Part shown: positions 3,254 through 33,257 of the stretch, piece after piece
How positions within the stretch are numbered: position 1 is the stretch's first letter
Layout of the letters: every line of letters begins with the position of its first letter
Origin: Bdellovibrionales bacterium
GTDB taxonomy: Bacteria; Bdellovibrionota_C; UBA2361; RFPC01
NCBI GenBank assembly: GCA_020434565.1
Contig: JAGRAO010000005.1
Coordinates: 1-38,526, forward strand
Reading direction: 5' to 3'
Length of the DNA stretch: 38,526 nucleotides
Translations under genes and position numbers: made by a program
The notes under the pieces: generated by a model
What the model saw: only the letters and a program-made list of their open reading frames with translations
What the model was told of the DNA's origin: nothing
Database searches by the model: none

Positions 3254-3985
3254 CTATAAAGTTGCCAACAGCACCGGTCCGTAGTAGTTCAAGGAAGCAC
3301 CAGTCTTTTCAAAGTACTGCTTCCAGAACCCTTCTATTGCCCTTCCAGTGCTATCCGAAACTCCGCTCCCGACGCCTGCTACAGCTACCTGCACATCCCG
3401 AAGATCCCAAACAAGAGAAAGTTTCTCGGCCCGTTGAACAAAATCATTGGCGACAAAGTTCTTCACTCCATAAAAAGAGAGTTCCTTACTGTTCTGCATC
3501 ATATCCGAAAAGATCACGAGCCGTTTTTTGGGAGAGTGGTCCGAGGAGAGCGCTTTACTTGCGAACGAAAGTGTTTCAAGCAGAGCCGAGGAAGGATGTT
3601 CTTCATCTTGAACGAGCATTTCACTTCTCAGCTGACCAAAACAGTCCTCAAAGTGCTTTTCCTGCGCACGAATCTTGAGCTTCGAAACCCAAAGCGATCC
3701 CTTGGGACGAACAATATCGAGAAGAATTCGTGTTTCGCTTGCCCGATCCGTACTTACCGCTGCAACGAGTCTCTCTCCAGGTTGGAGGAGCGCTTTAAGC
3801 GCTTCAAGGGATTTATCAAGATTATCGACGTTCTTTAACTCATCAGTTCGATCGATCAGAAGGAAAGTAACGCTTTCATGTTCGTTTGGAACGATACAGT
3901 TCGCTGCGTCCACAGCGAATGCGTCTTGGAAACAAGACAGCCCAACGATGACAAGAAACAAAAGAGATCTACACTCGGTTATCAT
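3254..3985 (-). CDS. Secreted hypothetical protein (signal peptide; possible degenerate VWA-like fold)
   Basis: ATG at 3983-3985. N-terminal MITECRSLLFLVIVGLSCFQDAFA is a signal peptide. LLIDRTDE and VIFSDM resemble VWA strand motifs. It overlaps the upstream gene by 17 nt. Confidence 0.5.
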   Translation of the reverse strand: MITECRSLLFLVIVGLSCFQDAFAVDAANCIVPNEHESVTFLLIDRTDELKNVDNLDKSLEALKALLQPGERLVAAVSTDRASETRILLDIVRPKGSLWVSKLKIRAQEKHFEDCFGQLRSEMLVQDEEHPSSALLETLSFASKALSSDHSPKKRLVIFSDMMQNSKELSFYGVKNFVANDFVQRAEKLSLVWDLRDVQVAVAGVGSGVSDSTGRAIEGFWKQYFEKTGASLNYYGPVLLATL

Positions 3986-5225
3986 GAGACACCTCCGATT
4001 GAGAATCGTTAATGAGTTTTTCTTTCATCTTTTCAAGCTTCAATGGAAAATCAAGATTGGCACTTATCGATTGAATTGTTGTTTCCCCGTTTCGGTATCG
4101 AAGATTCTCGTGACGATATACCGCAAGATTTTGCTGCAATCGGTGAAGGCACTGCCGCTCCAACTCCTCACCTTCCTTTAACACCTGGTCATACATCCCT
4201 TTGAGAAGAATAACCTCGACAAGCCCGTCCTGAAAATCTCTATTTGCTCGGTGTGTTTCAGCAATTTTCTTTTGTCCAAGCCTCACAAGGGTCTGCACCC
4301 GGCGTCTCTCCGCCGCTTCGATCTTTTTCCTGTTCTTTGAATGCAGGTGCTCAGCCTCTTGAAATCCCGGGACGGTATCGTGTGCAAGATACGAGACCAC
4401 GATTGCCGCCGAAAACACCGCCAGGTTTAACCAGAAAAAGAGGAAACTGCTTTCGACCAGCGTGTCCGTCAAACCAAGGTCTTCCTTAAATTCCCCTAAA
4501 TACGTCTGCCTCATGACCGACAATCCGTAGAGCGCTATGGTCACGACGGCAAAGGCGGCCAGGGCTTTCAAAGCATTTGGCCATGAGACCGTTCCTTCAT
4601 GTTCGCGTAACTTAATACCGATGAAGTGGGCAACCAATGGAACCGAAAGGCCAATAATGAACGCCATAATCCAGGTCATAACTTGATTTTCGCCAAAGAT
4701 CTGAAAGACAAGAGCGTTGAGTGGTATCTCCCCAACAAAAATGAGGAAGGCAAAAACGAGATACAACCAATGCGGTACATACACCACAGGAGCACGCCCG
4801 AAGCGCTCGTACTGCTGGTTAAATCGCTGCTCAGCTACTGAGTATGCTCTGTGGGCTTCGCTCAACCCAAAAGAGTTTTCGCAGGCATCAGTCTCAACTG
4901 AATAATTCGCTTCAATAGCTGCAAGCGCATCTTTGTGCTTGCGGTGCAAGAGTTCTTCTTCTGCTTTGATCTTTGCATCAAGCAACTCAAGAGAAGATTT
5001 GAAAGTAGAAGCTACCTTACTCGCAAGCGTAGAAGCTGCGTGTTGAAGCTGAAGTTCAAAAGGAGAGGGCTCGTGTGAATCTGGGAGCGGAAGACCACTC
5101 TCAGCGTCCGCTTTGGCGTGGTCCCGTATCTTCTGATCACTAAACTCACGCCTATGATCATCAAAAAGTCTCCGCAAGACCCTCATATCGGGAAGGAAGG
5201 CGCTCTTTTTCCACTTTCGAAACAT
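3969..5225 (-). CDS. Hypothetical membrane protein: N-terminal coiled coil, 4 TM helices, C-terminal coiled coil
   Basis: ATG at 5223-5225 with GGTGAGG upstream (the track start at 5246 is TTG). Four hydrophobic helices sit in the middle. It lies 72 nt downstream of the flotillin gene on the same strand. Confidence 0.55.
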   Translation of the reverse strand: MFRKWKKSAFLPDMRVLRRLFDDHRREFSDQKIRDHAKADAESGLPLPDSHEPSPFELQLQHAASTLASKVASTFKSSLELLDAKIKAEEELLHRKHKDALAAIEANYSVETDACENSFGLSEAHRAYSVAEQRFNQQYERFGRAPVVYVPHWLYLVFAFLIFVGEIPLNALVFQIFGENQVMTWIMAFIIGLSVPLVAHFIGIKLREHEGTVSWPNALKALAAFAVVTIALYGLSVMRQTYLGEFKEDLGLTDTLVESSFLFFWLNLAVFSAAIVVSYLAHDTVPGFQEAEHLHSKNRKKIEAAERRRVQTLVRLGQKKIAETHRANRDFQDGLVEVILLKGMYDQVLKEGEELERQCLHRLQQNLAVYRHENLRYRNGETTIQSISANLDFPLKLEKMKEKLINDSQSEVSHDNRV

Positions 5226-5297
5226 AACCTCACCAACAAAAAACAAGAGAGGGGCCGTCGCACCCTCTCTTGCTGCTTTACCCTTTAAAAGCGCGGA

Positions 5298-6719
5298 CTA
5301 CACGTCCTTGCGGCTTCGCGAATAATGAATTCCGTCCGTTGGCTCCTCTGAAGGGTTCTCCTCCGAAGCTCCATTTGTTGAGTGGCTGACAGGTTTTGGT
5401 CCTTCAACCATATCCCCGAGATATTCGGGCAATTCTATTCCTGCCATCTTCGCAACTTCATGAAGCGGCGGAAGAGTCTTAATCATGTTGCTCATAAAGT
5501 TTGATGTACTGCTCCCGTTCCCGTTTGTGCCGCCAGCACTGTCCCAAACCGTGACTTTGTCGATTTGGATATTTCGAATGGCTTCGGTCTGCAGGCGAAC
5601 GATCGTTTCGATTTTCTCAACCATCAACATCGTGGCAGCTTCTTTCGGAGAAGCGCTACACGCCTGAACCATCTTTCGGTATCCCTCAGCTTTGGCATTC
5701 AAGACTTTATCAATACCGGCCGCTTCGGCACTCTTTACCGCAACTATCGCATCGGCTTCCCCGACGGCTTCCTTACGCCGCTTTTCAGCCTCAGCTTCTG
5801 CGTTAATGGCAATCTTTCGCTTTTCAATCTCGCGAGGAACAACCTGCTCAGCGATAAGCCGTTTCTCTTCGGCTTGAGCCTTTGCGATCTGAATTTGTGC
5901 AGCAGCATTTTGTTCAGCTACCCGACCACGCTGTTGAGCGACCGCCTCTTGCTCGGCGAGATCCGCGTTGTATTGCGCAATATGTGCTTTCGCTCGGTTC
6001 TCCCCTTCAACCGCATTTGCGTTGTACTCAGACACCTTAATTCGTCTCTCCTTGTCCGCTTCGGCGGCTCCGATATCCCCTTTTTTCTCCTGCTCAGCCA
6101 CATCAATCTTGGCTTGGTTTATCGCTGTAGAGGCCGCCTTCTTTCCGATAGATTCGATATACCCAGACGCATCGGTTATATCGGTTATGTTTACGTTGAT
6201 AAGCGTCAGTCCGATCTTTCTCAGCTCCGGTCCAATGTTGTTTCGAATCGCTTCAAGGAAACGTTCTCTGTCTTGGTTAATCTCTTCAATCGTCAATGAC
6301 GCAATCGTCAAACGGAGTTGCCCGAATATGATCTCTTTCGCCATCGACTCCAGCTCGTCGTGTTCCAGATCCATCAAACGGACGGCCGCATTCGTCATAT
6401 TGTCTGGGCTCGTATCGATCGCTATGGTGAAGGTGCTTGGTACGTTAACCCGAATATTTTGCTGCGAAAGAGCACCTTGGAGTGGAATGCTAATCGTAAT
6501 CGGGGTCAAATCGAGAAATTGTGCTTGCTGAATAAGTGGAATCACAAAGTGCGCGCCCCCGTGATAACACATTACTGAGCGACCCTTCCCAACTTTCCCC
6601 TGCACGGCAAGAATCTTGTTCGAAGGACACCGGACGTAGATCCGCGAGAGAAGCATTGGAATGACGACAAAGATCGACAATCCAGCAAGGATCGTTATAA
6701 TCAGTAGCGAGCTATTCAT
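5298..6719 (-). CDS. Flotillin (SPFH/band-7 domain, FloT/YuaG-type) with long Ala/Glu/Lys-rich coiled coil
   Basis: N-terminal TM, an SPFH domain, then EA-repeat coiled coil (AEQEKKG...AEAEKRRKEA). It overlaps nfeD by 8 nt. Confidence 0.85.
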   Translation of the reverse strand: MNSSLLIITILAGLSIFVVIPMLLSRIYVRCPSNKILAVQGKVGKGRSVMCYHGGAHFVIPLIQQAQFLDLTPITISIPLQGALSQQNIRVNVPSTFTIAIDTSPDNMTNAAVRLMDLEHDELESMAKEIIFGQLRLTIASLTIEEINQDRERFLEAIRNNIGPELRKIGLTLINVNITDITDASGYIESIGKKAASTAINQAKIDVAEQEKKGDIGAAEADKERRIKVSEYNANAVEGENRAKAHIAQYNADLAEQEAVAQQRGRVAEQNAAAQIQIAKAQAEEKRLIAEQVVPREIEKRKIAINAEAEAEKRRKEAVGEADAIVAVKSAEAAGIDKVLNAKAEGYRKMVQACSASPKEAATMLMVEKIETIVRLQTEAIRNIQIDKVTVWDSAGGTNGNGSSTSNFMSNMIKTLPPLHEVAKMAGIELPEYLGDMVEGPKPVSHSTNGASEENPSEEPTDGIHYSRSRKDV

Positions 6720-7338
6720 TGCTTTCTCCTGTGGTAGTGGATAGCCGACCCACGACGACCATCCCGTTTTCTAAAACTTTGTGAACTTGAACAGCTTCGA
6801 ATGAAGAGATTTCGCTCCCATCTTCAGCTTTGGCTTCAAGCTCATACAATTGATCATTGATAGTGACCTGAATCTTTCCAATCCCTGCTGCAGGTATTCG
6901 TTGATATACAGTCGCGGTGAGTCCAACGGCATCCTTCGGATTGAAATTAGCGCCCTCGCTCGCCAAGCGAAACGCAAGGCTGTACAAAACGGCGGTTACA
7001 ATCATCGCACCGAAACCAACGGCAAACGCTATCGCAACTGATCCTCCCTCACTCCAGTGGAACTGAGAATATGCACAAAGACCGGACCAACCAAACATCA
7101 TGAGAAAAGAGCCGATCGTGTTAAGTGAAAAGAGCCGAAAGCTTGAATCGGTTGAGTCACCGTGAAGATCTCCATGATGCTCAAGATGACTCGACGAACC
7201 AAATTCGAGCTCTCCGCCAAATCCCCCAAGAAACATAAGAGCCACTCGGGCGACAAAGAAGAGAGTCCCAACTACAGCGCACGTCCAGAGGGCGAGCTCC
7301 ACACTTGAGGGGGCATCGGAGAGGAATGGGAGTGACAT
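6712..7338 (-). CDS. NfeD-like short-form protein (YuaF-type), membrane anchor plus C-terminal OB-fold
   Basis: N-terminal TM helices and a C-terminal GLTATVYQRIPAAGIGKIQVTINDQLYELEAK...VVV OB-fold typical of NfeD. ATG at 7336-7338 with GGTGAGG 7 nt upstream. The nfeD-flotillin pairing is canonical. Confidence 0.8.
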   Translation of the reverse strand: MSLPFLSDAPSSVELALWTCAVVGTLFFVARVALMFLGGFGGELEFGSSSHLEHHGDLHGDSTDSSFRLFSLNTIGSFLMMFGWSGLCAYSQFHWSEGGSVAIAFAVGFGAMIVTAVLYSLAFRLASEGANFNPKDAVGLTATVYQRIPAAGIGKIQVTINDQLYELEAKAEDGSEISSFEAVQVHKVLENGMVVVGRLSTTTGESNE

Positions 7339-7684: not shown

Positions 7685-8299
7685 TCACTCCGAAGCCGGT
7701 TCGCACTCCACATCGGAGCGGGCTGTGATCACAGCTCTCGGTCGACGAAGCAAGAGGATCACAACCCCAACACAGATTGCGGAGTCGGCAACATTGAATG
7801 CTGGCCAGTGGGATGAACCCACATAGACATCGAGAAAATCGACTACGTGGCCTATCTGAATTCGATCGAGGAGATTCCCTATCGCCCCCCCAAGGATTGC
7901 CCCGAGTGCTGCTTGGGCGATTCTATCTCTTTGATAGTCGTACAGAAGGAAGTAGAGAATGACTCCAAGCGCCAGAACCGTCACGCCAAAAATAATCAAC
8001 TGTCGAACCGTTGATTCAAGTCCACCCAACATCCCGAATGCGGCTCCAGGGTTGAGCACGTGCGTGATATTGAAAAAATCCGGGATTACCTCGACCGACT
8101 CATACAGCCGAAGTTTTGATACAACCAAATGCTTCGTGACCTGATCGAAAATCACCACAACAAAAATACTCACCGATAATATTGTCAGTGCAGTTCGGTC
8201 CTGAAGCAACTCTTTCAACTTCTCTTTCACGCCACCTCGTTCTCTTTTTTCTCTCTCTTCTCTCTTCGATCTACCAAGAAGATCCTTCCTGAATTTCAT
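7685..8299 (-). CDS. lspA: Lipoprotein signal peptidase (signal peptidase II)
   Basis: Contains FDQVTKHLVV, NPGAAFGM, IGNLLDR and VDFLDV...FNVADSAI, the conserved LspA boxes. The start is taken at MKFRKDLL (ATG 8297-8299), which overlaps the upstream gene end by 29 nt. The longer track ORF to 8428 is unlikely. Confidence 0.8.
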   Translation of the reverse strand: MKFRKDLLGRSKREEREKRERGGVKEKLKELLQDRTALTILSVSIFVVVIFDQVTKHLVVSKLRLYESVEVIPDFFNITHVLNPGAAFGMLGGLESTVRQLIIFGVTVLALGVILYFLLYDYQRDRIAQAALGAILGGAIGNLLDRIQIGHVVDFLDVYVGSSHWPAFNVADSAICVGVVILLLRRPRAVITARSDVECEPASE

Positions 8300-9659
8300 C
8301 TGGGTCCAGCACTTCTTCACCAGCCTCGGGCTCTTCGGTAACCTCAACATCGTCGGCGACAGAGGACTGACGCTCCCCTCTACGAGCACTCCCTTGAAGT
8401 TTCTGCCCTTCGAGCTTAGCGGGATCAACCTCTAAGACTCTTCCGTTCTCCTCTGAGACAAGTAGAGTTCCGGACGGGAGAAAGAACAGCCGACGAGCAT
8501 CGAGAAAAAGGCTCTCACTCGAAAGCTCAAGAGAAAAATCATTCTTTTCTCTAAGTGGATTCTCTTTTTCGGCCACTCTCCAGAAGCGCAAAACACCATC
8601 GCGGCCGAGAGATGCAATCAGCGCTCTCTGAGGTGAATAAACAACATCACGAACCAGCCCGCTGTGAGCTACCATCCTCGTCAACAACTCTGGACCACGA
8701 ACCCGCCAAAGCTCTAACGCTCCGGTGTCGGTAGAGAGGAGAAATTCCTCTCTCCCAACCGCTACGATCTTTTCAATTCTCTCAGCTTTCCCGCGAGAAA
8801 CCTTCCGCCGGAGAGCTTCTCGTGTAAAGAATCCGATATCGAAGAGATCGTCATCGGGATAGGGTTGCTCACTTCCTTCGTCATAGGGCAACCAGATACT
8901 GACCCCTCCAGCCCAATCGCCGGAGAAAAAGGCTCTCCCATCAGGATGAACCAGAAGGGCACTCACAACTGTCCCGTGACCGAGATACCTCTCGATGTTT
9001 CGAGAGTCCGGACCACCAGAAGAACGAAACGAAAGATTCCACCGATAAATCTTGCCATCAGCTCCACCGAGTAGAACTCGCGGGCGAAAAGGATCAAGCT
9101 CCGCAGATGCTGCACGAGTCCGAATCACGTTCGTCTCGACCACCATTTTTTTTTCGAGAAGACCCCACACCTGGATTGCCGAACCGTTCTGAACAACGAG
9201 GAACGGGAGTTCCGTCTGGGTTGGAATCACCTTTGCATTGTCGGGGAGGGACATGTACAGACGGGAGTCACCAGACGCCAAATCCCACAGATAAACTTTC
9301 CCCTCGTTTGAAACACTCCAAAATGCGACCGGGCTCGGTCCCTCTTGCGAAGCTCCACTTATTGGAACGAGTACGATCTGAACCGAAGCGGCTGAAGGGT
9401 GTTCTGACGGAAGAGCTTCGCGCCAACTCTTGACTTTGTTCGGTGTACCCCTGGACCTTTTGTAGAGCAGATCCCAGTTCGCTTCATCGGAGGACAAAGA
9501 ATCACGGGACGGAGAGTCAGCGGGCACCGGATTGAAACTCTCTGGAACAAACCCCTCAAGCGAACCGCATCCTCCCAAAAGCAAAAGGACAACAAGGGCC
9601 GCACCTAAGTTCCGCCAAGATACTGGGAATAATGGCTTTTTCCTGAACTGCCCAGTCAT
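8271..9659 (-). CDS. WD40/beta-propeller-repeat lipoprotein
   Basis: ATG at 9657-9659 with AAGGGGAAAA upstream. The signal peptide carries lipobox LLLLGGCGS. Repeated ...W(D/N)L / ...VSIW / ...LELWRV / ...LRFWRV blade-like motifs. Acidic C-terminus. Confidence 0.65.
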   Translation of the reverse strand: MTGQFRKKPLFPVSWRNLGAALVVLLLLGGCGSLEGFVPESFNPVPADSPSRDSLSSDEANWDLLYKRSRGTPNKVKSWREALPSEHPSAASVQIVLVPISGASQEGPSPVAFWSVSNEGKVYLWDLASGDSRLYMSLPDNAKVIPTQTELPFLVVQNGSAIQVWGLLEKKMVVETNVIRTRAASAELDPFRPRVLLGGADGKIYRWNLSFRSSGGPDSRNIERYLGHGTVVSALLVHPDGRAFFSGDWAGGVSIWLPYDEGSEQPYPDDDLFDIGFFTREALRRKVSRGKAERIEKIVAVGREEFLLSTDTGALELWRVRGPELLTRMVAHSGLVRDVVYSPQRALIASLGRDGVLRFWRVAEKENPLREKNDFSLELSSESLFLDARRLFFLPSGTLLVSEENGRVLEVDPAKLEGQKLQGSARRGERQSSVADDVEVTEEPEAGEEVLDPDEIQEGSSW

Positions 9660-10037
9660 TGATTTTCCCCTTAACCCCCTCACCGACGAGGGCTGGCAAT
9701 AAGCCCCGTATACGCTTGAAAGTAATAGCCTTCCTGGGGCACTATGCCAGTCTCACATGTAAACAGAAAGTCCAGTGCAAGGACGACATGTGAGGGAACT
9801 CAGCGAAACCGTCTTCCACTGATTCTTTAAGAGCGGAAGACCAATGATCTGGGGCCTTGCATTTAGGGAACATGCATTAAAGGAAAGGAAGGGGCTAAAC
9901 AGCGCCGCTCTTCCGGGAAGACTTGTAGCTATATCGAGAGACAAGCGTCGAGTTTAAAGGCGGTGGTTACTCAACCCCGAAAAGCAGCTCGACGAGGCCT
10001 CGTAAGACAACCATTCCATTATTACAGGAGAAACAAT

Positions 10038-11849
10038 ATGTCTCGTGACTCTGTTGGTCAGTCAGCAGGTACAGAAGCTGAAACGGATATACAGCTTACG
10101 GATGTGCTCACAAACGACTCGCTCCGCTCAGCTATTTCGGGCAAAGGCTTCCCGTCCTCAGCTTCCAAGATCCACACGGAACTGAAGGCCAAGAAAAATC
10201 TTTGTATCGTCAGCTCTGGTTATGAGGACCTCCTTGTTCCTACGGTCATCGCCGCACTTGATCTCACAGAAGACGAAAAGAAAGTTTTGGTCGTCACGTC
10301 AGATCGGAATGTAGGAAAGAAGCTCGCAAAAGATTGTGAGAACCTCGGCGTACAAGTTTTCGTCGACATGTCTGAAGAGAGCCATGGCCGAGGGAGCATT
10401 TCACCCATTGGTGATGCAAAGCTCGTAGTCGGCACTCCGAATGAGTTACTCTTGACCGCTCAGGAACACCCTTATCATTACCACTCGACGATTGTAATCT
10501 GCCCAAAGAAACGGGGGAGTTCAGTTCCAACTGCTGAAATTTCAACTCTGCTGAGCACAGTTGACGAGGAAAGCGTATCTCTCAAAGTGTTAATCGGAAA
10601 TGAAATTCCTCAAGGTTACGAAAATCTCGTTTCAAGATACTGGAACGAAGGAAACCAATGCGAGGAGCTCAACCTCGATCGCGAGCAGATGCAGGCTGTC
10701 GATCACGTCTTTTTTGAAGTTGGCGCCGATCTCCTCGCAAAGCCCGAAGCTCTCTGTAATCTCATCACCGTCATGGGAAATCCGCGTGCCGCGGTTTTCT
10801 GTAATTCGCCGTCAGATACAGATCTCGTTGAGGTTCTCTTGAAGAAGCGTGGAATCTCAGCCAAGAAGCTCGTGGGACACATTCCCGACCGAGCTGTAGG
10901 TGGAATCATGGATCGAGTTCGAGAGGGCGAAGTAACAGCTCTCGTTCTTACCGACGTATCTGCTCAGCGGGTACCGGTTCAGGAGTTCGACATCGTGGTG
11001 AACCACGGGACGCCAGAGGATCCTCAAGCCTATCTTGATCGAATGGGTGCTCCGTCATCAAAGGCTCGGCTCAAAAAAGTCATCAGCCTTGTTGGAACAA
11101 CTGATGTAGGAAACTTCCACCATTTGAAAAAAGTCTCAAAAATTGACTTTGTCCAGGAATCGCTCCCCTCTTCGGAAGCAATAGCGCGAGCTGGCTTTGA
11201 TAACCTTAAGCGAGAAGCAATTGAGCATCTCGAAGGCATTCAAGCCGACTACTCCGAGACCATTAAGCTGATTCTGGAAGATGAGTCCAAGGAAGACCTC
11301 CTCCGATACCTGCTGCACGCCACTGTGGCGCTTCTCCCGGAAGCGAAAGCTCAAAGTTCTCGGGGGAGGAGAGATCGAAACGGACGCGATGACGAACGGG
11401 GTGACGATTCGCGGGATCGTCGCTCGCGAGACCGCGACAATCGCTCAGATCGAAGGGACTCAGACCGAGGTCGCGATCGTGACGACAGACCGAGCTTGCC
11501 TCCGAAGAAAGATGTCCGAATTTATGTGGGACAAGGAGAGAGTTCTGGTCTTACAGAAGAAAAACTTCTTCAACTCCTGAAGGACAACCTACCGGCAGAC
11601 GCAGCAGTTGAGCGGCACATCGTCCGAAGCTCGTATGCGTTCTTTGATGTCGACGAGTCCAAGGCCGAAGATGTCTTGAAGAAGATGGAAGCTCTCTCAC
11701 TTGATGGAGAGAACCTCTTTTCATGTCGTGCAACCATAATCTCCTCTCCGCGTGCGGCAGACGAAACAGCAGGCACCAGTGCTGAGGAAGCTTCCACTCC
11801 TCACGATGAGGGCTCTTCTAGCGAAGAGGAAGCGGCGTCAGAGCTGTAA
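10038..11849 (+). CDS. DEAD-box RNA-helicase-like protein with eroded ATPase motifs, Arg/Asp-rich low-complexity region and C-terminal DbpA/DeaD-type RNA-binding domain
   Basis: ATG at 10038 with AGGAGA 8 nt upstream. The RecA-like fold spacing is kept, but motif I reads SSGYED (not GSGKT), Ia TSDRNV, Ib TPNE, II IVICPK (not DEAD), V TDVSAQRV and VI YLDRMGAPSS (not HRIGRTGR). An (RD/RS)n tract follows. The terminal domain DVRIYVGQGESSGLTEEKLLQLL...FFDVDESKAEDVLKKMEALSLDGENL matches DbpA_RBD. Confidence 0.7.
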   Translation: MSRDSVGQSAGTEAETDIQLTDVLTNDSLRSAISGKGFPSSASKIHTELKAKKNLCIVSSGYEDLLVPTVIAALDLTEDEKKVLVVTSDRNVGKKLAKDCENLGVQVFVDMSEESHGRGSISPIGDAKLVVGTPNELLLTAQEHPYHYHSTIVICPKKRGSSVPTAEISTLLSTVDEESVSLKVLIGNEIPQGYENLVSRYWNEGNQCEELNLDREQMQAVDHVFFEVGADLLAKPEALCNLITVMGNPRAAVFCNSPSDTDLVEVLLKKRGISAKKLVGHIPDRAVGGIMDRVREGEVTALVLTDVSAQRVPVQEFDIVVNHGTPEDPQAYLDRMGAPSSKARLKKVISLVGTTDVGNFHHLKKVSKIDFVQESLPSSEAIARAGFDNLKREAIEHLEGIQADYSETIKLILEDESKEDLLRYLLHATVALLPEAKAQSSRGRRDRNGRDDERGDDSRDRRSRDRDNRSDRRDSDRGRDRDDRPSLPPKKDVRIYVGQGESSGLTEEKLLQLLKDNLPADAAVERHIVRSSYAFFDVDESKAEDVLKKMEALSLDGENLFSCRATIISSPRAADETAGTSAEEASTPHDEGSSSEEEAASEL

Positions 11850-11880
11850 AAACCAGTGCTCTAAGATAAGAGATTCGAGT

Positions 11881-13659
11881 TCAGGGGAGATGCAGCCGCT
11901 GCCCCACGGTGACTTTATTTGATTTGAGCTTGTTGCGTTGCTTTAACGCACTGACCGCTACGCCGTACTTTCGACTGAGAGACCAGAGCGAGTCTCCTTT
12001 TCGAACAAGAATGGAGCGGGACATCGGCTGTGGTGCTGGCATAGCCCTATCACCTTGGGAGGAATCCCCAACGATGAGAGACTGTCCTATTTTTATTCGT
12101 GATGACGAGAGCCCATTAAGACGCCTCAGTTCAGAAACCGATATGGCAAATTTTCGAGCAATCCCATAGAGCGTATCCCCAGGTTGTACCGTATATCGAT
12201 CGCTCGACTCAGACCTCGTCACGGTGCGGGTAGTTGAAACACTCTCCCTCACCGGAGGAGCGCTTTCTCTCTCAGATACGACCAATCTCTGCCCTACCCT
12301 TATGGAATCAGAGCTGAGGTTGTTCATTTCACGGAGGGCTGAGACCGAAGTACCAAACTTTTTGGCAAGCCGACCAAGTGAATCCCCAGAACGAACTTGA
12401 TAAACAACTCCCCCGTATACGGAGCTGGCGCTCATAGCCGTATCCACCCGCCTCTCAACGTTCGAAAGCTTTCCGACTCGATCAGAATAGTTCGCTGGGA
12501 TATTGAGGATGTATCCTTGCGGGACACGGTACTGACCCTTCCAAACACGAGGAAGCAACGCATAATTCACCGCCTGCAGCTCGTCTTGCGGAATACCGAG
12601 ATGAGAAGCAAGCACACTCACCGGCATGCTTGCTTCAACTTCCTTCCGTACTAATTGAAGCTTGGGGTGAGGAGAAATACCGGGGAAATATCTGGGGATG
12701 TTATCGTAAATCTCAAGCGCTGCGAGAAACTCGGGATAGAAATTCTGCGAGGCGAAACCAAACGGCTGTGGTGAAGAGTCCTCAACAATTCGAGCAATAT
12801 CTCTTGTTCCCAGCTGCTTTACCTTGCGTTCCACCCCATAAATTCCGTGATTGTAAGAGGTCAAAGCAAGAGGCCACGTTCCAAGCTTGCGATACGCGTC
12901 AAGGAGATATCTCGCAGCACCATGAGACGCCTTAACGACATCCCTTCGTTCATCAACAGCTCGATCAACTTTCATGTCATACAAACGGCCAGTTCTGGGC
13001 ATAAATTGCCAAATTCCTGCAGCTCCTACGGAACTGTACGCAGCGTAATCGAAAGAAGATTCCACGAACGGGAGTCGGGTTAACTCTACCGGGAGGCCAT
13101 ACTCCTCAACAAAGATCTTTTCAATGAGATGGAGATACCGACCAGACCTCTGGACAGCTTCTGCGTATCTCTCGCGGATTCCAGTCTGCGACCGAATCCA
13201 GTCCTCTTTAATGACGTCGTTGTACTTCTGCGGACCGGGCCCGAGCACAGACATGACTCCAGCGATTCGCTCCTCGAGGGCTGAACTCGGTGCCCGGCCA
13301 GCCGCCAAATGCTTCATCGCCGATTGAATCGCAGACTGGTGCCGCTTAAATGCGTCGGAACGGAGTCGCTTGAGAGCCCCCTCACTCAACGTCTGAGCCT
13401 CACGTTCGAAGTCAAGCACCTCAAAAACAATATGTGGATACATTCTGTGGTGGATCACCATATTGTTCTTGCCGTACTTACTAAAGATATCGATCCAGAA
13501 CTCGACCCGAGGTCGCATCTTTGCAGGAACGACAAAATCGGGATGGCGATTAAGGGACCGATGACCTCCTGACTGAGGTGAAGCCGAAACTATCTCAGCG
13601 TGCAGCGAGGCAAGTGGGAGGAGAAAACAAACAGCGAGCTTGAAAATCAGAGCCTTCAT
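11881..13659 (-). CDS. mltD: Membrane-bound lytic murein transglycosylase D-like (SLT domain + 3 LysM)
   Basis: Signal peptide. SLT catalytic region ESSFDYAAYSSVGAAGIWQFMPRTG. Three C-terminal LysM repeats (YQVRSGDSLGRLAKKFG, YTVQPGDTLYGIARKF, ILVRKGDSLWSLSRKYG). Confidence 0.8.
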   Translation of the reverse strand: MKALIFKLAVCFLLPLASLHAEIVSASPQSGGHRSLNRHPDFVVPAKMRPRVEFWIDIFSKYGKNNMVIHHRMYPHIVFEVLDFEREAQTLSEGALKRLRSDAFKRHQSAIQSAMKHLAAGRAPSSALEERIAGVMSVLGPGPQKYNDVIKEDWIRSQTGIRERYAEAVQRSGRYLHLIEKIFVEEYGLPVELTRLPFVESSFDYAAYSSVGAAGIWQFMPRTGRLYDMKVDRAVDERRDVVKASHGAARYLLDAYRKLGTWPLALTSYNHGIYGVERKVKQLGTRDIARIVEDSSPQPFGFASQNFYPEFLAALEIYDNIPRYFPGISPHPKLQLVRKEVEASMPVSVLASHLGIPQDELQAVNYALLPRVWKGQYRVPQGYILNIPANYSDRVGKLSNVERRVDTAMSASSVYGGVVYQVRSGDSLGRLAKKFGTSVSALREMNNLSSDSIRVGQRLVVSERESAPPVRESVSTTRTVTRSESSDRYTVQPGDTLYGIARKFAISVSELRRLNGLSSSRIKIGQSLIVGDSSQGDRAMPAPQPMSRSILVRKGDSLWSLSRKYGVAVSALKQRNKLKSNKVTVGQRLHLP

Positions 13660-16633: not shown

Positions 16634-18301
16634 TCAATTCGAACCTGATTTATCATCTTCCATAAGAGCTCGAATGGCCTTAAAGGCCTGTGTCTGAATC
16701 TGACGAATCCGCTCACGCGAAAGCGGTTTACTATCAAGGGGGCTCTGAACTCCCATACCGAATAGATACGCAGCAGTTTCATCAAGAGTGAACTCTCTAT
16801 CTTGATTGTTCAGGCCAAACCGGAGTCGCAATACAAGTTGAGGTATCGGCTCAAGTTGATCGAGATAGTGGCGCATTTCAATACCAATTAACCGCCGTTC
16901 TTCAGACAACCGAGAACCTTCAAACGCTTCCCGACCATCCAAGAGACTAAAGGTCTCATTTGACTCAGATCCCGGCTGCTCTTCGCTCAGAATTCTCGAG
17001 GCCGCAGCTCCACGCAATTGAGCCACATGGCGAGCAGTCAATCGAAAAGAGGTTCCCTTGCCGACTTTCTCCTTCTTTTTCTCCAGTTCTCGAGAAGCTT
17101 GAACGATCTGCTGGTCAGTCGGATCCCGTTCTCCTTGCATTTCCAAGTATGCGATCGCCCCACGTATCTTCCCCATAATGAGGTACGCATGGCGTGGCAC
17201 TCTCACGAGCGAAGCTTCATCTGATACACAGTTTCCGACTTCTTTGCGAATCCATTGTGTCGCCATAGTGGAAAATTTGTATCCTTTTTCTGGGATAAAC
17301 TGCCGTACTGCCTCTACCAGCCCTCCATTTCCAGCAATGATGAGGTCAATCAACGGCACACCGCGATCGGCATATCTCTTTGCGATTGAAACAACGAGAC
17401 GCAAGTTTGACTCGGCGAACTCTTCTACAAATGGCTCGATTCTCCGTTCAAGCGAATTCAGTTGGCGCATAAGCCGTTTGAATTCATTTGGCTCGATGCC
17501 GTTCATAGCTTTCCATTGAACAAAGCCCGCTAAGAGGGCTCGGCCTTCTCGCGCACCTTCTTCAGAAAGTTCGGCAAAGACCTCTACCTCTCCCCTCTGA
17601 ACTCGCTCAAGACCTTTTGAAAATGTTGCACGAGAGATATGAGCCCTTTTACAAAAAAGATTCCGTCGTTCATCGAGTTCTTTCAGCGCGCGAAGTGCGC
17701 TATCGGCGATATTTCGACAACTTCGAAATTCCGAGTAGGTCATCAAGCTCCCGAGGTCAGGATCCATCATGATCTCTTTCTCACGTTTGGGAGAAAACCG
17801 AGTGCGATAGTCGGGCTCGAGAGCACCGGTCGGGCAAGCAAGAGTGACCTCAATTCCTTTCGTTTTCTCAAATTCACGCTTTTGAACAGAGTAGCGACGT
17901 TCGACTAATTCCCGGGCCTGCGGGGTAAGTGGTCTCCGCCCCGCTGCCGGATGAAGTAACTCGTGAAGAGCTGGTAAGTATCGGAGCATCAGCTGATGCT
18001 GTTGAAATGTTATCTGTCGAATCCTCGCTCCCAAGCGGAGCTCATCTTGGCGAGTGAGAAGGGGTCGTGACCCCGAAATTCTCGTCAGATCTCGAATAAA
18101 GGCCTGAAATTCACCTTCATATCCTGACTTTGGCGGAACAAGTGCTTCGAATTCATTATTTTCGGGATTTCTCTCCGCACGAGCAGGCAGCCTCGCACTT
18201 CCGAAGATCTGGGCTGCTGATTGTTGTGTGCCGTTTAAGTGCGGCCCCTTTTCTATCATTCTTTCTCGACAAAAGGGGCTGAATACGGCCCCGCTCCCCA
18301 T
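16634..18301 (-). CDS. RNA polymerase sigma-70 family factor (RpoD-like: long N-terminal region, regions 2, 3 and 4)
   Basis: Region 2: NLRLVVSIAKRYADRGVPLIDLIIAGNGGLVEAVRQF...GYKFSTMATQWIRKEV. Region 4: LSRERIRQIQTQAFKAIR. ATG at 18299-18301. Confidence 0.8.
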   Translation of the reverse strand: MGSGAVFSPFCRERMIEKGPHLNGTQQSAAQIFGSARLPARAERNPENNEFEALVPPKSGYEGEFQAFIRDLTRISGSRPLLTRQDELRLGARIRQITFQQHQLMLRYLPALHELLHPAAGRRPLTPQARELVERRYSVQKREFEKTKGIEVTLACPTGALEPDYRTRFSPKREKEIMMDPDLGSLMTYSEFRSCRNIADSALRALKELDERRNLFCKRAHISRATFSKGLERVQRGEVEVFAELSEEGAREGRALLAGFVQWKAMNGIEPNEFKRLMRQLNSLERRIEPFVEEFAESNLRLVVSIAKRYADRGVPLIDLIIAGNGGLVEAVRQFIPEKGYKFSTMATQWIRKEVGNCVSDEASLVRVPRHAYLIMGKIRGAIAYLEMQGERDPTDQQIVQASRELEKKKEKVGKGTSFRLTARHVAQLRGAAASRILSEEQPGSESNETFSLLDGREAFEGSRLSEERRLIGIEMRHYLDQLEPIPQLVLRLRFGLNNQDREFTLDETAAYLFGMGVQSPLDSKPLSRERIRQIQTQAFKAIRALMEDDKSGSN

Positions 18302-20134: not shown

Positions 20135-20342
20135 AACGTCATAATTTTTCGTAGAGAGTATCGCGAACGAAAGAACATCAAATGCTCTCCAGAAGTGCAA
20201 TCCTTAGGGATAATATCCTAAACGTTGAGGCGAATGAGCGACGAACTGTCGCTAAAATGGCATCCCAACAGTTTTGCAACTCCACTCAGATTTAGCCCAT
20301 AACAGGTTGAAAGTTTTAGGGTACTCTCAATTCTTCAAGAAA

Positions 20343-21341
20343 ATGTACAGCGAACCTTATCCACCGTCTTCAGTACAAGCGCTTCACGAAGTCACAATTG
20401 GTGCTCTTCGCCAGTTCAATCACCTTTCACAGTCATGGCGTTTACTGTTCCTTTCGATTCCGCTTGATGCTCTCACCTTTTATTTTATTGTGAACATCTC
20501 CGAGACGTTTCCAAAAGCCTTTGCGGAAAGCACATTGACCCTCACATTGGTACTGATTGCTGGGATTAGCCTTTTTCGTGACCAAATTGTCGAAGCAGCA
20601 ATGAGTAGTTTTACGCTGTACGGGAAGATATATAACACCCGTCAAAACTATTCTTTTCTTGTAATGGCCGCTGTTGCGCTTGCACTCCTTATAGATGTGA
20701 CAACAAAAGCCTATGAGGCATATGGATCACTCGCGGTCCTCGCGCTTCTCGCGGGCGCCTTTCTCTTTTTTCCGAGATGGTACAGAGCAATCCGGCGACA
20801 GCAACCTCAGCTTGGCCCAGCACCTTCTCGCCTTCTTCGGGCAACCCAGACGATGAAATTTTTGTTTCGCATTCATTTTGCAGTCATGATCGCAATGCGA
20901 GTAAGTCTCGTCGTAGCAGCCGTCGCGGCTGGGATACTGTATTCTGAATTAGGTGTCGTCTTGGCGCTTATAGGAGTAGGCGCAATTGCTTTTGTGAACG
21001 TTCAGCCAGATCAATGTGACTTTCTCCGACAGTGTCGACGATGTGCTCGACCTACAGCTCGTATCTTTTTCGATGAAGGTTCGTGTCCCACTTGTGAACA
21101 ACAGAATTATCGAGATCGAGAAGTTCGCCAGCAGGCACTTGAACAACAAGCTCGTGCTGGCTTTAACCTCGACAAAGTGGATGCACTGATGGATTCGGTT
21201 ACCGCTAAAAAGATCTCGAAGAAGAATATTCTGCAAATTGGAAAGAAAAAGACTTTTCCCCATGGACCTCAATTAACGTTTGCCCAGAAAGCGGAACGTC
21301 GGTTGTTTGAACGAGAGCGGAAAAAGGCCGCGAACCTGTAA
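20343..21341 (+). CDS. Hypothetical membrane protein with C-terminal C4 zinc-ribbon and basic tail
   Basis: ATG at 20343 (MYSEPY). About six hydrophobic helices, then CDFLRQCRRC...CPTCEQ and a K/R-rich C-terminus. Confidence 0.5.
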   Translation: MYSEPYPPSSVQALHEVTIGALRQFNHLSQSWRLLFLSIPLDALTFYFIVNISETFPKAFAESTLTLTLVLIAGISLFRDQIVEAAMSSFTLYGKIYNTRQNYSFLVMAAVALALLIDVTTKAYEAYGSLAVLALLAGAFLFFPRWYRAIRRQQPQLGPAPSRLLRATQTMKFLFRIHFAVMIAMRVSLVVAAVAAGILYSELGVVLALIGVGAIAFVNVQPDQCDFLRQCRRCARPTARIFFDEGSCPTCEQQNYRDREVRQQALEQQARAGFNLDKVDALMDSVTAKKISKKNILQIGKKKTFPHGPQLTFAQKAERRLFERERKKAANL

Positions 21342-24267: not shown

Positions 24268-27200
24268 ATGACGGGACAACGGAAAAAGCGTGGCATTCGA
24301 TTGGCGGTATGGGGGCTCGTTCTCGGCGTTCTCTTCGGCACCGGCGTCCGCTTGCTTGAGCGATTCATCGCATCATCGCTTATCGATCTTCTCCGCGATG
24401 AAGCTCGAGCTTCTTGTGCCTGTGACTTTCAAATCGACTCAATCAAGATGTCACTCTTGACCATGAGCGCTCGAGCAAAAAACGCGCGTGTGCTTTTCAA
24501 CGGCAAACCGGCTCTGACCGTTAAGAATCTGCGAGCAACATTTAGACCTTTCGAGCGGATTCTCAAACGAAAAATAGTTCTCAAACATCTCCTCCTTGAT
24601 GACATAGACGTCGACGGAGTCGGGGCTGAAAGTGGAACGTTTCTGTTTATTAACCATCTCGCGGAACCGCTCGATCCCTCAAAGGATCACCCGCTCAAGT
24701 TTACCGTTTCACTTATGAACATGACAGTTCAAAACGCGCACGTACAACAACATGTAGGAGGGGCAAAGGTTGAGGGATTCGATGTCGGGCTCACGTATCA
24801 GAGAGACGACTCTGACAATCTCGTGTTACATCCACATGCTGCAAAACTTGTTTACGCCTCTTCAGAAGAGGAGCCAATTGAACTTGGGCAACTTGAAAGC
24901 GAACTGTATATTACCGACGACTCGATTGAATTTCGTACGCTTGCTTTACAGGCTCAAGACATCCTCTCTCAGGTTACCGCCACAGTCTTTCCACAAGATG
25001 GACACCGACTCGAAGGGAAATTATCAGTAAAGGTTGGAGAGAAAGCGAAAGTCTTTCCTCCTTGGCTCAGCGTTCCACTTTCGGCTCAGGCCGATCTCGG
25101 GGGAACTTTCTCGTCTCCGACTGCTGAAGGATCCTTTCAGATACCCGCAGACCATTCTGCCCGCATCCAGATCTCAGAGACGCCGCTTTTGGAGTTTCAG
25201 CAGGGAGCAGGTTCATTTTCCTTCAACGAGCACTCTGGACTTGAAGTCCCCACCCTCTCCTTTTCGGGGCCAACGACTGAACTTCATCTTCAGGAACCCC
25301 TGGTACTTCAGGGCGACACGGCACGTGGAGCCGCCCGCTTTCAGCTCCAGGAGCTCCGACTCGGACAAACCGTCATCGGCGATATCGATCTCGTTGCCAA
25401 GCTTGAGAGTACTCCTCAGAATTCGCTTGCGGTTTCAATCGGCGGAACGGTAGGACGTGTTCAGGGCTTTGACTACAGAACCCCGCCGGTTTCTCTTAGA
25501 GCAACCGTGTCGTCTGAGAAGTTCAAAGTTTCTCTCTCTCATTCGAGCCCACAATTTGGTGCTTTTTCAATTCAGGGAGATGGATCTCTTCAGGGCGGTC
25601 CTGAGAGTAATCAATTCCAATTTCAATTCGAAAACTTTGCTATACCGAAAGTTCTCGAATCACGTTTGGACAGCGAATCAGATCCACTTCGAATCTCTGG
25701 CTCGGGGGCCCTCTCAGGTGGCCTCTCACTCTCGGATCTCAGCGGCGCCGCAGAGATATCACTGTCTTCCCCTGACTTTTCTGGTGAAGCAGCCTTGAGA
25801 GGAGAAGCCACACTCAAAAATCAAAGAGTTTCACTCCAAATCGGTAACGACTCAAAATCGATAGAGGCATCTCTCCAGTTGCCCCTCGATGAGACAGTCT
25901 CGGAACGAGGCCTCCTTCATCTCGAACTTCGAGATTTCCGTCCCCAGGAGTACGACCCAAGTCTCAGTTGTATTCTGCTCGATCTCAGTGCCGATTATTC
26001 CTTTGAGGCCGTAGCCCCCTGGGAGGGCGAGGGCAATGTGGAACTCCGGAAGGCCACTGTCGGATGTTCTCCCCATACGTTGGGCCTCTCAGCCCCAGCT
26101 TCCCTTTCGATCAACCTCGGCTCGATTCAGTTACGTGACCTCCTCTGGAAAGGTCGAGATGCAGGCTTACGTATTTCAGGAACGGTTGGAATCCCTGAAG
26201 GATACGATCTCGCCTTGAGTGGTGAGATCGATCTCGAGAGCCTCCTGCCTTACGCCTCTTCGATAGATGACTTGCGAGGAAAGACACTCATTCAGGCTCA
26301 TGTGGGCGGCTCCTTCGAAGCTCCCCGTTTCGGGGGAAGTGCGAAAATCGAGGGGGGTGAACTCTCTCTTGAGAAAGCGAATATGAGCCTCTCTCATGTC
26401 GAAGGCACTCTCGAAATAGAGCCGGAACGGATAAACATCCGCGATATCTCCGGCACGCTCAACGGGGGATCCTTTAATCTCTCCGGTGAAGTCTTTCCGT
26501 TTACCTTAGAGCATTCAAACCTCGGTCTTTCGTTTCAAGACTTTTTCATAGAGCCGGAGAGCGAGTTGCAGGCCTCACTCTCGGGAGAACTCTTTCTCAC
26601 CCAGGGGGAGGCAGATCGACCTGCTCTCGCTGGAACGGTAACGGTAGATTTTGCAGAACTGAAAAAAAGTTTTGATCTCCTCTCGTTGCTACGCTCTCTC
26701 CCGTCTTATCTCCTTTCAAATTCAAAAACTCGTGAAAGCACCTCAACTCAAAACCTTCCAGCGGTAGACCTTGATGTAAGAGTCAAAGCCGACAGAAATG
26801 TCTTTATTCTTACAACCTTCCTCGGTGCTGAACTAAACGGTGACCTCTATGTTCGGGGGCAACTCTCCGACCCAAAAGTTATCGGCACGCTCCAGACGCT
26901 CAATGGCTGGTTCGGATTGCGGGATACTCGATTTCAAATAACGTCTGGCCAGGTTACGCTTGGAACTTTGCAACCTGAACCACAATTGGACGTTGTAAGT
27001 GAGACCTATGCCAGTAGCATTGGCGGAGATGACACACTCATTATTCTCGAGGCGAAGGGTCCACTCGATTCACCCAAGATAACGCTTTCCTCGAATCGAG
27101 GACTGACGCAGAACGAAATTCTTTCCCTCGTGAGTTCTGGCAGGGTCGGGATTCAGCAGGATGAATCCCGATTTTTCACTTCTGGTCTTCGACTGCAAGA

Positions 27201-31722: not shown

Positions 31723-32207
31723 CTTTTCCTCGAGATAAATTTGGTCCCTGTAAAATTACGAGAGGGTCATACAGAGAATCTCGCCCGAGATCTCTAAAGT
31801 CGTACGATCAAACCCCGTACGGTCTCCCTCTTAACGACTTTCGACCAACGAAAAGTATTCGTGTGCTTTGGACAGGCCGACTCCGTTTCGACCGCTTTCA
31901 GCCGCCAAAAGTATAAATTGGTCACCGAGTATACCTACTCAGAGGTTCGAAGCTACTGGGAGACGAGAAATTACCCCTTTTTTTGCCGGGGCGACAAGCA
32001 CATAAAAATTAATATTGTTAGTTAGTTAGCTAGCTTTCCCCCAGACCCTCTCCCTTTTGGGTCTGGCAAACCACGTTTTTTGTACCCTCGCCACAGCTCC
32101 CTGCATCCTAACTTACCAGAAAGGGTTATTCCCGTTCTACCGACCGGAAGTGTGTGTGGTTCAATGACGAAAAAAATGGGTTACTTCCGGGATTTAAGAG
32201 GTTGGAC

Positions 32208-33257
32208 ATGGAAAAGCAGGTGATAATATTTGCAAATGGTGCTGAGAAGGGTCGAGTGGAGGAGATAGCCAATCTCTCTCCTATGAGCTCAGTGCTGATA
32301 GTTGACGATAGCAACAGAGGGTTCAGCCTCCCTGAGGGCGCACAGACGACCAATTCACAGGATTTTTTCGGCACACGAATAGCTGAGCTTGAATCAACTC
32401 GTTGTGCCGCTATCGTGATCGACGCAGCGTGGGATATCGAAATTGCCTCTCTCGGGCCGGTACTTGAAGAAGCGAGCCGATCAGACGAGAACACTGTCAC
32501 GATCTTCCCCTTAAGCCACGGAGAGGAGATTCAATTCTCGCAAGATCTCACGATTGACACTGCGATCAACCTCTGTCACCCGCAGCAAGCCTGGCCAGTA
32601 GGGACAGCCGCTATCTGCTCGTCGACGTTTGAATCCATAAAGGAGCCTGAGAATTGCTCTCAGTTTATTGGACAAGCGATTCTTGCCGCACTCAGCATCG
32701 GGTGTAGCCTTCGACTTGGAGCGAATACCCTTGTTCTCAAAAAATCTTCAGAATGGAAGGGGACTCTCTCTCAAAGAGATCTCTCCGCACTTCTCAAGTA
32801 CGCTGTTGGGACGCTCAATATCGAAGAACTCTTCCCAAATCACTCATGGCAGACTCATCAAGAAGAGAGTGCGGCTGCTTGTTATCACACTCTAGCGGCA
32901 ATGTTCTTGAAATTTAATGACCTTGAGGCTGCCAAAGAATGTCTCTCTTTCGGAGATCAACTTGAAGATAGTCCTCGATCATTGGCTCTTAAAGGACTGA
33001 TCGCACTGACAGAAGGAGAAACCCTGACGGCAGTGGCGAATATGGTTTCAAGTCTTCAAGAGTATGAAAAGCGAAAAAAGTCGACTTCACAGCACTATCT
33101 CGCTTTTCAACCTCGGGATTTGGAGCAAATCAATACGAGTCTTCAGAGCGGACTTTCAGCTTTGAATGAGAGAGACAACGACCTTGCGATGAAACATTTC
33201 ACAAGCGCTGTTTTCAACTTCGACCAATTCTATCTCGATATTGGTCTCTCTCAGTAG
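32208..33257 (+). CDS. Hypothetical protein (N-terminal alpha/beta region, C-terminal TPR-like helical region)
   Basis: ATG at 32208 (MEKQVIIF) with AAGAGG upstream. Transcribed divergently from the GT9-GT2 gene across an AT-rich 480-bp intergenic region. Confidence 0.45.
   Translation: MEKQVIIFANGAEKGRVEEIANLSPMSSVLIVDDSNRGFSLPEGAQTTNSQDFFGTRIAELESTRCAAIVIDAAWDIEIASLGPVLEEASRSDENTVTIFPLSHGEEIQFSQDLTIDTAINLCHPQQAWPVGTAAICSSTFESIKEPENCSQFIGQAILAALSIGCSLRLGANTLVLKKSSEWKGTLSQRDLSALLKYAVGTLNIEELFPNHSWQTHQEESAAACYHTLAAMFLKFNDLEAAKECLSFGDQLEDSPRSLALKGLIALTEGETLTAVANMVSSLQEYEKRKKSTSQHYLAFQPRDLEQINTSLQSGLSALNERDNDLAMKHFTSAVFNFDQFYLDIGLSQ

Follow-up and report, generated by a model that had tools for sequence, protein, structure and literature searches.

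What becomes of a DEAD-box RNA helicase whose ATP-binding and helicase motifs have been lost while the rest of the protein is kept? This question is raised by a gene at positions 10038 to 11849 of contig JAGRAO010000005.1 (GenBank assembly GCA_020434565.1) from a Bdellovibrionales bacterium; the whole stretch that we analyzed, 38,526 nt of the forward strand, is referred to here as the window. DEAD-box proteins are the largest RNA helicase family, and what they do apart from catalysis is difficult to distinguish from what their ATPase drives. The product of the gene, 603 amino acids (aa) long, carries the NCBI name "DEAD/DEAH box helicase [Bdellovibrionales bacterium]". Here, we describe it as a member of a previously undescribed, large and vertically inherited family of the Bdellovibrionota, which we name the "NSPSD" pseudo-helicases. 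Its architecture is RecA1, RecA2, dimerisation domain, Arg/Asp-rich linker, and an RNA-binding domain (RBD) resembling an RNA recognition motif (RRM). We consider it likely that the protein is a catalytically dead descendant of a DeaD/Hera/CshA-type DEAD-box helicase and works as an ATP-independent, probably dimeric, RNA-binding adaptor.

The gene is complete and has a good ribosome-binding site, as the following features show:
10038..11849, + strand: pseudo-helicase coding sequence, complete, 603 aa plus stop, from the list of open reading frames (ORFs); identical to protein P0001 of our collection.
10026-10030, + strand: Shine-Dalgarno-like AGGAG, 7 nt upstream of the ATG at 10038, read from the sequence.

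The frame is open from a GTG at 9963, and a single long ORF spans 9963..11849 (+). When canonical helicases and helicases of the family were compared with the whole window by tblastn, they gave one colinear match in one frame and no second helicase gene elsewhere in the window. The gene is therefore not a frameshifted true helicase, a possibility that the earlier note on this DNA had raised. Lying between a divergent and a convergent gene, it is apparently monocistronic. In a Pfam scan, the protein matches Helicase_C (E 1.3e-10, aa 235-337), with no match to the DEAD domain PF00270. The NCBIfam models for CshA, DbpA, SrmB, DeaD, and RhlB/E match from about residue 166 or later, and all of these matches fall far under the cut-offs.

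The N-terminal part of the protein is nevertheless a true, degenerate RecA1 domain:
10095..10688, + strand: degenerate RecA1-like domain, aa ~20-217, from alignments, a profile match and an AlphaFold2 (AF2) model.

First, the best Protein Data Bank (PDB) sequence matches of the protein are CshA, Hera, DeaD, eIF4A, and DbpA. The alignments run through both RecA domains with Methanocaldococcus jannaschii 1hv8 (aa 82-370) and Sulfolobus tokodaii 2z0m (aa 69-352), and the alignment with CshA 5ivl covers aa 129-380. Furthermore, P0034, a family member with intact Q, GSGKT, D-E, and HRLGRSGRGG motifs, aligns to aa 26-430 with an E-value of 8e-56. Second, a profile built solely from fully degenerate N-terminal domains (A3) matches the RecA1 domain of Hera (3mwj) with an E-value of 3e-8 over its whole length, profile positions 26-213 lying on chain positions 9-205; it also matches RecA1 of DeaD, DbpA, CshA, and eIF4A. 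Third, an AF2 model made with 40 sequences, canonical helicases among them, gives the N-terminal domain a predicted local distance difference test score (pLDDT) of 65-88 and a RecA-like order of beta strands and alpha helices. A Foldseek search with this model finds full-length DbpA (7pli, 568 columns, E 4e-21) and open-state DDX6, Dbp5, and eIF4A with template modelling (TM) scores of 0.59-0.65. Since the canonical sequences in its alignment favor a helicase-like N-terminal domain, the model is supportive rather than independent. Two colinear RecA-like domains are thus found both by HMMER alignment and by Foldseek, with a confidence that is moderate and alignment-dependent for the N-terminal one.

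We called the helicase motifs by aligning the protein with the canonical helicases P0020, P0021, P0101, and P0102 and with family members:
10209-10235, + strand: motif I (aa 58-66), SSGYEDLL for canonical TGTGKTAAF; no Lys or Thr, acidic residues.
10293-10316, + strand: motif Ia, SDRNVG for canonical PTRELA, by alignment.
10431-10448, + strand: motif Ib, TPNEL for canonical TPGRI, by alignment; the remnant is GTPNEL.
10494-10511, + strand: motif II (aa 153-160), CPKKRG for canonical DEADEM, by alignment; these positions hold the remnant VICPKK.
10596-10604, + strand: motif III, GNE for canonical SAT, by alignment.
10794-10817, + strand: motif IV, VFCNSPSD for canonical VFCNKKSK; the family signature lies at the motif IV position.
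10875-10904, + strand: motif IVa, GHIPDRAV for canonical GDMRQASR, degenerate, by alignment.
10950-10973, + strand: motif V, TDVSAQRVP for canonical TDVAARGLD, by alignment; these positions hold TDVSAQRV.
11031-11072, + strand: motif VI, DRMGAPSSKA for canonical HRIGRTGRAG, by alignment; the region reads YLDRMGAPSSKARL.

Seven motifs (Q, I, Ia, II, III, IVa, and VI) have been destroyed, and motifs Ib and V are partly retained. In motif VI, only the first of the three arginines (R335) is left. The residues that bind and hydrolyze ATP (Q, I, II, and VI) are gone, as are the residue set that couples hydrolysis to unwinding (motif III) and the RNA-holding residues on RecA1 (Ia) and RecA2 (IVa). 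Indeed, none of the sequence hallmarks of catalytic DEAD-box enzymes that we looked for (Walker A, D-E-A-D, SAT, PTRELA, and HRxGRxGR) is present, and no intact GKT, DEAD, or HRIGR motif was found elsewhere in the protein. The earlier note had reported every motif to be eroded at DEAD-box spacing; the alignments bear this out, apart from the partial retention of Ib and V.

The loss is not confined to this genome. An initial protein search returned 18 relatives with a Helicase_C match, most of which also match DbpA; just one has a DEAD-domain match, and in many the N-terminus ("MEHVYYEVG...") coincides with the start of RecA2. Scanning one genome per species gave 57 loci, labeled Bdellovibrionota, Bdellovibrionales, Oligoflexia or "delta/proteobacterium". 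All are in uncultured metagenome-assembled genomes, mostly freshwater, plus the complete 2.28-Mb genome CP129486.1. A profile search against 1.84 billion cluster representatives returned 464 clusters (50% identity) at E<=1e-30, and the best 150 of the profile matches score at least 197 bits. A gap in bit score separates family members (>=193) from canonical helicases (<=146); the window protein scores 472 bits against the family profile. At least 186 collected sequences have [C/N]-x-P-S-D-[A/T]-D at the motif IV position. The full "NSPSD" signature (C-N-x-P-S-D-[AT]-D, LLAKPxAL, RxYVG, and RxxYxFxD) is complete in the window protein.

The family genes also share a genomic position, defined in the window by these markers:
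8271..9683, - strand: gene for a WD40 beta-propeller lipoprotein with lipobox LLGGC near the N-terminus (Pfam); divergent syntenic marker.
7685..8428, - strand: lspA, signal peptidase II (Pfam), adjoining the WD40 gene; syntenic marker.
11881..13659, - strand: MltD-like lytic transglycosylase gene with SLT and LysM domains (Pfam); convergent downstream marker.

The WD40 and LspA genes lie divergently upstream in 46 of 58 other loci and are absent mainly where the contig ends near the gene. The MltD-like gene is convergent downstream in the window and, by tblastn, in 20 of the 58. This conserved neighborhood indicates that the family genes are orthologues inherited vertically. The lspA-WD40 pair itself is tightly conserved across the clade (L002-L059) and is always divergent from the pseudo-helicase gene; to our knowledge, WD40 lipoproteins of this kind are uncharacterized. 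We considered a functional link between the pseudo-helicase and its WD40 neighbor and judge it unlikely, because the lipoprotein signal implies an extracytoplasmic location; the synteny is used only as a marker of orthology. A role in anti-phage defense was likewise rejected, since PADLOC gave no match and the neighbors are housekeeping cell-envelope genes.

Across the family, RecA1 has been lost repeatedly. About three-quarters of the members start directly at RecA2 and have no RecA1, and in about a quarter RecA1 is degenerate. In 38 short-form loci, the stop-to-stop ORF opens just 33-93 codons before the signature, which leaves no room for an N-terminal domain. GKT is found in eight of 50 distinct long forms and D-E in three, SAT and PTRELA are found in none, and P0034 is the only one with all three motif VI arginines. 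The genomes of 57 species thus hold orthologues that either have no RecA1 or have it at every stage of decay. In a neighbor-joining tree of RecA2 and the dimerisation domain, which is rough and has no support values, the family forms one clade on a long branch from the canonical helicases. Long and short forms are interleaved within it (e.g., the short P0008 beside the long P0004), and the window protein falls in a clade of degenerate long forms. Two loci preserve snapshots of the domain loss. In L002 (7920-8021), the RecA1 relic upstream of the present start consists of ~27 in-frame codons and nothing else; in L014 (1595-1794), it directly precedes the present start and is broken into two fragments that differ in frame. 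Together, the interleaved tree and the relics indicate several independent deletions of RecA1, which is dispensable in the family.

A split helicase, with the N-terminal domain encoded by a separate ORF upstream of short forms, was looked for, and only the L002 and L014 relics were found. In the window gene, an in-frame ATG (Met218, 10689-10691) stands exactly where short-form orthologues start, just before RecA2. Internal initiation there, yielding a short form, is unsupported, as the nearest GAGGAG is ~22 nt upstream, too distant to convince.

What is left in all members is the C-terminal part of the protein, which in the window is arranged as follows:
10698..11165, + strand: RecA2, aa 221-376, the best-conserved part (Helicase_C 1.3e-10; pLDDT 90-97; family-invariant residues).
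11166..11360, + strand: three-helix domain, aa 377-441, equivalent of the Hera/DeaD/CshA dimerisation domain (HMMER, Foldseek, AF2).
11358..11489, + strand: Arg/Asp-rich polyampholyte linker, aa 441-484 (composition; pLDDT <50, predicted disordered).
11508..11753, + strand: DbpA-type RRM-fold RBD, aa 491-572 (sub-threshold Pfam DbpA match, family profile, AF2).
11754..11846, + strand: acidic Ser/Glu-rich C-terminal tail, aa 573-603, predicted disordered (sequence; pLDDT <50).

AF2 predicts three helices (379-400, 403-414, and 418-441) right after RecA2, the arrangement seen in DeaD, Hera, and CshA; dimerisation itself is a prediction. The HMMER alignment extends to aa 410 with the DeaD fragment 5gi4 and to aa 389 with Hera 3eaq, and Foldseek gives TM scores of 0.70-0.75 against structures of Hera RecA2 with its dimerisation domain (3eaq, 3ear, and 3eas). 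PF25399, a family listed for canonical relatives, has no match in the window protein at E<=1.

The linker lies in a 58-aa stretch of low complexity (31% R, 28% D/E, 12% S). Every family member has such a linker, 56-129 aa long with ~27% R, 25% D/E, and a net charge near zero. An equivalent R/D/G-rich tract lies between the dimerisation domain and the RBD of the four canonical helicases used for motif calling, so the tract was inherited from DeaD-like helicases. The earlier note had likened the tract to eukaryotic RS/RD domains, a comparison that we do not follow: a eukaryote-like SR/RS domain is rejected because serine makes up only 12% and canonical bacterial DeaD-like helicases have the same tract. 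A tandem repeat in the DNA was considered as the origin of the tract, and none was detected.

The RBD is predicted to fold as beta-alpha-beta-beta-alpha-beta (AF2, pLDDT 87-96). Taken singly, the window protein matches Pfam DbpA only weakly (E 6.8e-5, aa 494-558, 23.3 bits against a gathering score of 25.6), so the earlier statement that its C-terminus matches this domain well does not hold for the single sequence. It does hold at the level of the family. Most members have a precomputed PF03880 match, and the family RBD profile matches the RBD of YxiN/DbpA (2g0c) over its full length with an E-value of 0.006; its next matches are the canonical RRMs of PABP, hnRNP Q, nucleolin, and U2AF65. RRMs stack on single-stranded RNA through their RNP2 and RNP1 motifs. 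Two invariant stretches of the family RBD, RxYVG and RxxY[SA]FxDV (11628-11651), appear by sequence to resemble RNP2 and RNP1, respectively. After the acidic tail, a large subclade (P0004-P0017 and many loci) has a conserved C-terminal peptide, (E/D)(E/G)GPT(L/M)LAVD(E/D), which has the appearance of a short linear docking motif; it is missing from the window protein, which ends in SSSEEEAASEL.

How might such a protein work? In the reading that we prefer, it would be an adaptor that needs no ATP, binds RNA, and is probably dimeric. Its grip on RNA would come from the RRM-like RBD, through the conserved RNP1/RNP2-like aromatic and Arg residues, and from the Arg-rich disordered linker. RecA2 serves as the docking site for RNase E on RhlB and for eIF4G, Gle1, and CNOT1 on eukaryotic DEAD-box proteins. 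In the family, no part is better conserved than RecA2, although the canonical RNA contacts on it have changed: motif IV, normally basic, is now an acidic NSPSDxD, and QxxR has been lost. Its repurposed surface is therefore more likely to dock a protein or ribonucleoprotein partner. The partner could be a canonical helicase, the ribosome or the machinery of RNA decay. Judging from what DeaD, Hera, and CshA do, the obvious setting would be ribosome assembly or RNA decay, and the protein may serve as an RNA chaperone or scaffold. The residual RecA1 of the window protein would be a slowly eroding appendage, with an accessory structural role at most.

A more ambitious version of the adaptor reading, which we put forward tentatively and hold to be a good deal less probable, is that the family represents a new class of bacterial RNA-binding regulators made from the C-terminal half of a DEAD-box helicase. 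RecA2, once a lobe that bound RNA and ATP, would have become a protein-docking module by way of its acidic NSPSDxD surface, and the dimer would use its RRM-like domain and Arg-rich linker to tether specific RNAs to the ribosome-assembly or RNA-decay machinery with no ATP turnover, perhaps replacing the ancestral DeaD in a possibly predatory lineage. If so, the series from P0034, with its ATP site intact, through the window protein, with its dead motifs, to the short forms would be a stepwise record of the change from motor to scaffold.

An unlikely alternative, though one that has to be weighed, is that the protein is a regulatory paralogue, either forming heterodimers with an active DeaD/CshA-type helicase or competing for its partners. 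Its role would then be to inhibit that helicase, to target it, or to hold its place on complexes of ribosome assembly or RNA decay. Regulation of an active paralogue is common among pseudoenzymes. The equivalent of the dimerisation domain is retained, and constraint is strongest on it and on RecA2; the architecture is otherwise that of canonical DeaD-like helicases, linker and RBD included. However, in the window and the ~550 kb of flanks surveyed, no active DeaD/CshA-type helicase is encoded, and the single fixed, conserved locus fits degeneration of the ancestral gene in place at least equally well.

Selection bears on whether the gene has any function at all. We estimated dN/dS, the ratio of nonsynonymous to synonymous substitution rates, by the Nei-Gojobori method, using only pairs with unsaturated dS (L018/L025, L012, and L013/L023/L024/L029):
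RecA2 and dimerisation domain: dN/dS 0.02-0.06.
Linker and RBD: dN/dS 0.06-0.13.
Degenerate RecA1: dN/dS 0.11-0.28.

In these close pairs, purifying selection is strong on RecA2, the dimerisation domain, and the RBD, all of which have family-specific invariant residues; the dead RecA1, where present, is still constrained, but far less than the rest of the protein. The suggestion in the earlier note that this is a pseudo-helicase of ATP-independent type which has been kept, rather than a broken gene, is sustained by the orthologues at the same locus and by the purifying selection on them. The dN/dS values come from pairs outside the lineage of the window gene, whose nearest relative is only 36-40% identical, with dS saturated.

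We give very little weight to the idea that the window gene is dying, i.e., a recently inactivated helicase with no function in this genome. Its RecA1 is very divergent, with 24% identity to the nearest relative, and in motif V and at the histidine of motif VI the protein has degenerated further than most members. At positions at least 85% conserved across 162 members, it matches 58 of 65 (family median 95%), which places it 27th lowest, in the lower fifth. The same count tells against decay, as retaining 58 of 65 conserved positions, including all the RBD and NSPSD signature residues, is a poor fit to a decaying pseudogene. In addition, the ORF runs uninterrupted through 603 codons and is preceded by a good ribosome-binding site, the 220 stop-free codons of the degenerate region would arise by chance with a probability of roughly (61/64)^220, or about 3e-5, and purifying selection is strong across the family wherever it can be measured.

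Least probable of all, to the point that we give it hardly any credence, is that the protein is still an enzyme, with non-canonical nucleotide binding or hydrolysis or as an ATP-gated RNA clamp: the eight long forms with GKT, P0034 with its Q, I, D-E, and full set of motif VI arginines, and the loss of SAT and PTRELA in all long forms would suit a family that perhaps began as ATP-binding and non-unwinding, but the P-loop of the window protein is an acidic SSGYEDLL with no Lys or Thr, its motif II is CPKK, two of three motif VI arginines are lost, and, since most orthologues have no RecA1, the conserved function cannot need an inter-domain ATP site.

Several points weigh against reading the protein as a dead helicase turned adaptor. 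When AF2 was given family sequences only, aa 1-220 had a pLDDT of just 40-65, and the better model relied on canonical helicases in its alignment. The DbpA match of the window protein alone is under the Pfam threshold. The distance to the nearest relative, with its 24% identical RecA1, has been noted above. Among family members, P0034, P0033, and P0019 retain Walker A and D-E, and P0034 also retains motif VI, suggesting that the ancestral role of the family may have used ATP binding. The genomic neighbors give no hint of a partner. Finally, RNA binding, dimerisation, and partner docking are all properties that we infer.

Among known systems, DeaD/CsdA, Hera, and CshA are closest by descent, with the same domain order, colinear homology, and the same R/D/G-rich linker before the RBD. 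The best PDB matches in sequence and fold are CshA 5ivl, Hera 3eaq/3i32/3mwj, DeaD 5gi4/5gju, and DbpA 7pli. Unlike these helicases, the window protein has no ATPase or coupling motifs, and most of its orthologues have no RecA1. The family further differs in the acidic NSPSDxD that stands for motif IV, in the loss of QxxR (IVa), and in the RNP1/RNP2-like aromatics of the RBD. DbpA/YxiN, which is specific for hairpin 92 of 23S rRNA, has a C-terminal RRM-fold RBD of the same Pfam family, with weak similarity (an E-value of 0.006 for the family profile and a score of 23.3 bits for the window protein). Both DbpA and YxiN differ in being monomeric, active ATPases with neither a dimerisation domain nor a long R/D linker.

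Two known pseudo-helicases offer parallels. Utp25/Def, of the eukaryotic small-subunit (SSU) processome, has been described as the first validated DEAD-box pseudohelicase (PMC9539457). It resembles the window protein in its DEAD-box fold with two RecA domains, vestigial motifs, absence of DEAD, and disordered accessory region, and its non-catalytic role in an RNA-protein assembly is of the kind proposed here (PMC9539457). However, Utp25, a nucleolar protein of eukaryotes, retains its two RecA domains and has neither a DbpA-type RBD nor a dimerisation domain, whereas RecA1 has repeatedly been deleted in the family described here. The Pfam family of Utp25 has no match to the window protein at E<=1, so the resemblance is one of kind and not of descent. 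In bacteria, the PriA pseudohelicase of Deinococcus radiodurans is a homologue of superfamily 2 (SF2) retained after losing its helicase motifs (PMC4504706). It differs in acting in DNA replication restart, in belonging to another SF2 family, and in being restricted to a single lineage rather than forming a large family with domain loss. No bacterial DEAD-box pseudo-helicase was described in the open-access literature that we searched, and the NSPSD family may be the first bacterial example.

The family may also serve as a natural experiment. One orthologous gene is present in hundreds of lineages with its ATP site apparently intact, with RecA1 dead or with RecA1 absent, and throughout this graded series RecA2, the dimerisation domain, the linker, and the RBD are tightly constrained. 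This points to an ATP-independent function of the C-terminal half of DeaD, Hera, and CshA, which could also be hidden in the active enzymes. A practical point concerns annotation: family members are labeled "DEAD/DEAH box helicase" or "ATP-dependent RNA helicase DeaD" in databases, and for most of the family these labels are wrong.

Upstream of the gene, one further element was found:
9752-9760 and 9786-9794, + strand: perfect 9-bp inverted repeat, CTCACATGT / ACATGTGAG, with a 25-nt spacer (repeat search, fold).

The repeat lies within the 354-nt divergent intergenic region. The hairpin at 9752-9794 is present in the minimum-free-energy fold of the 377-nt upstream region, which has a z of -2.4 against shuffled controls. 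The earlier note had placed it in a long 5' untranslated region; the hairpin is real by both repeat search and fold, while its placement was overstated and it is not conserved. Comparison of the intergenic region with the upstream regions of all 58 loci by blastn gave chance-level matches only, Rfam had no match in the upstream region at E<=1, a simple scan of 9500-12100 found no sigma-70-like promoter, and the 9-mer of the hairpin is not enriched in the window. The element could be a hairpin in RNA or else an operator belonging to a divergent promoter.

Elsewhere in the window, six ORFs encoding 208-747 aa have no Pfam family: 3969..5246 (-), 6712..7338 (-), and 20274..21341 (+) at an E-value of 0.001, and 32154..33257 (+), 33599..34429 (-), and 36023..38266 (+) at 0.0001. 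The ORF at 16634..18301 (-) encodes a 555-aa sigma-70 family protein with region 2 from aa 296 and a long N-terminal extension, probably the primary sigma factor. At 29962..31722 (-), a 586-aa ORF joins a GT9 heptosyltransferase-like domain (aa 59-291) to a GT2 glycosyltransferase (aa 312-396). At 24268..29955 (+), a single ORF of 1895 aa contains a TamB domain (aa 727-1079), POTRA repeats, and, at the C-terminus, an Omp85 barrel (aa 1611-1895), suggesting a fusion of TamB and TamA, the translocation and assembly module, which would be unusual.

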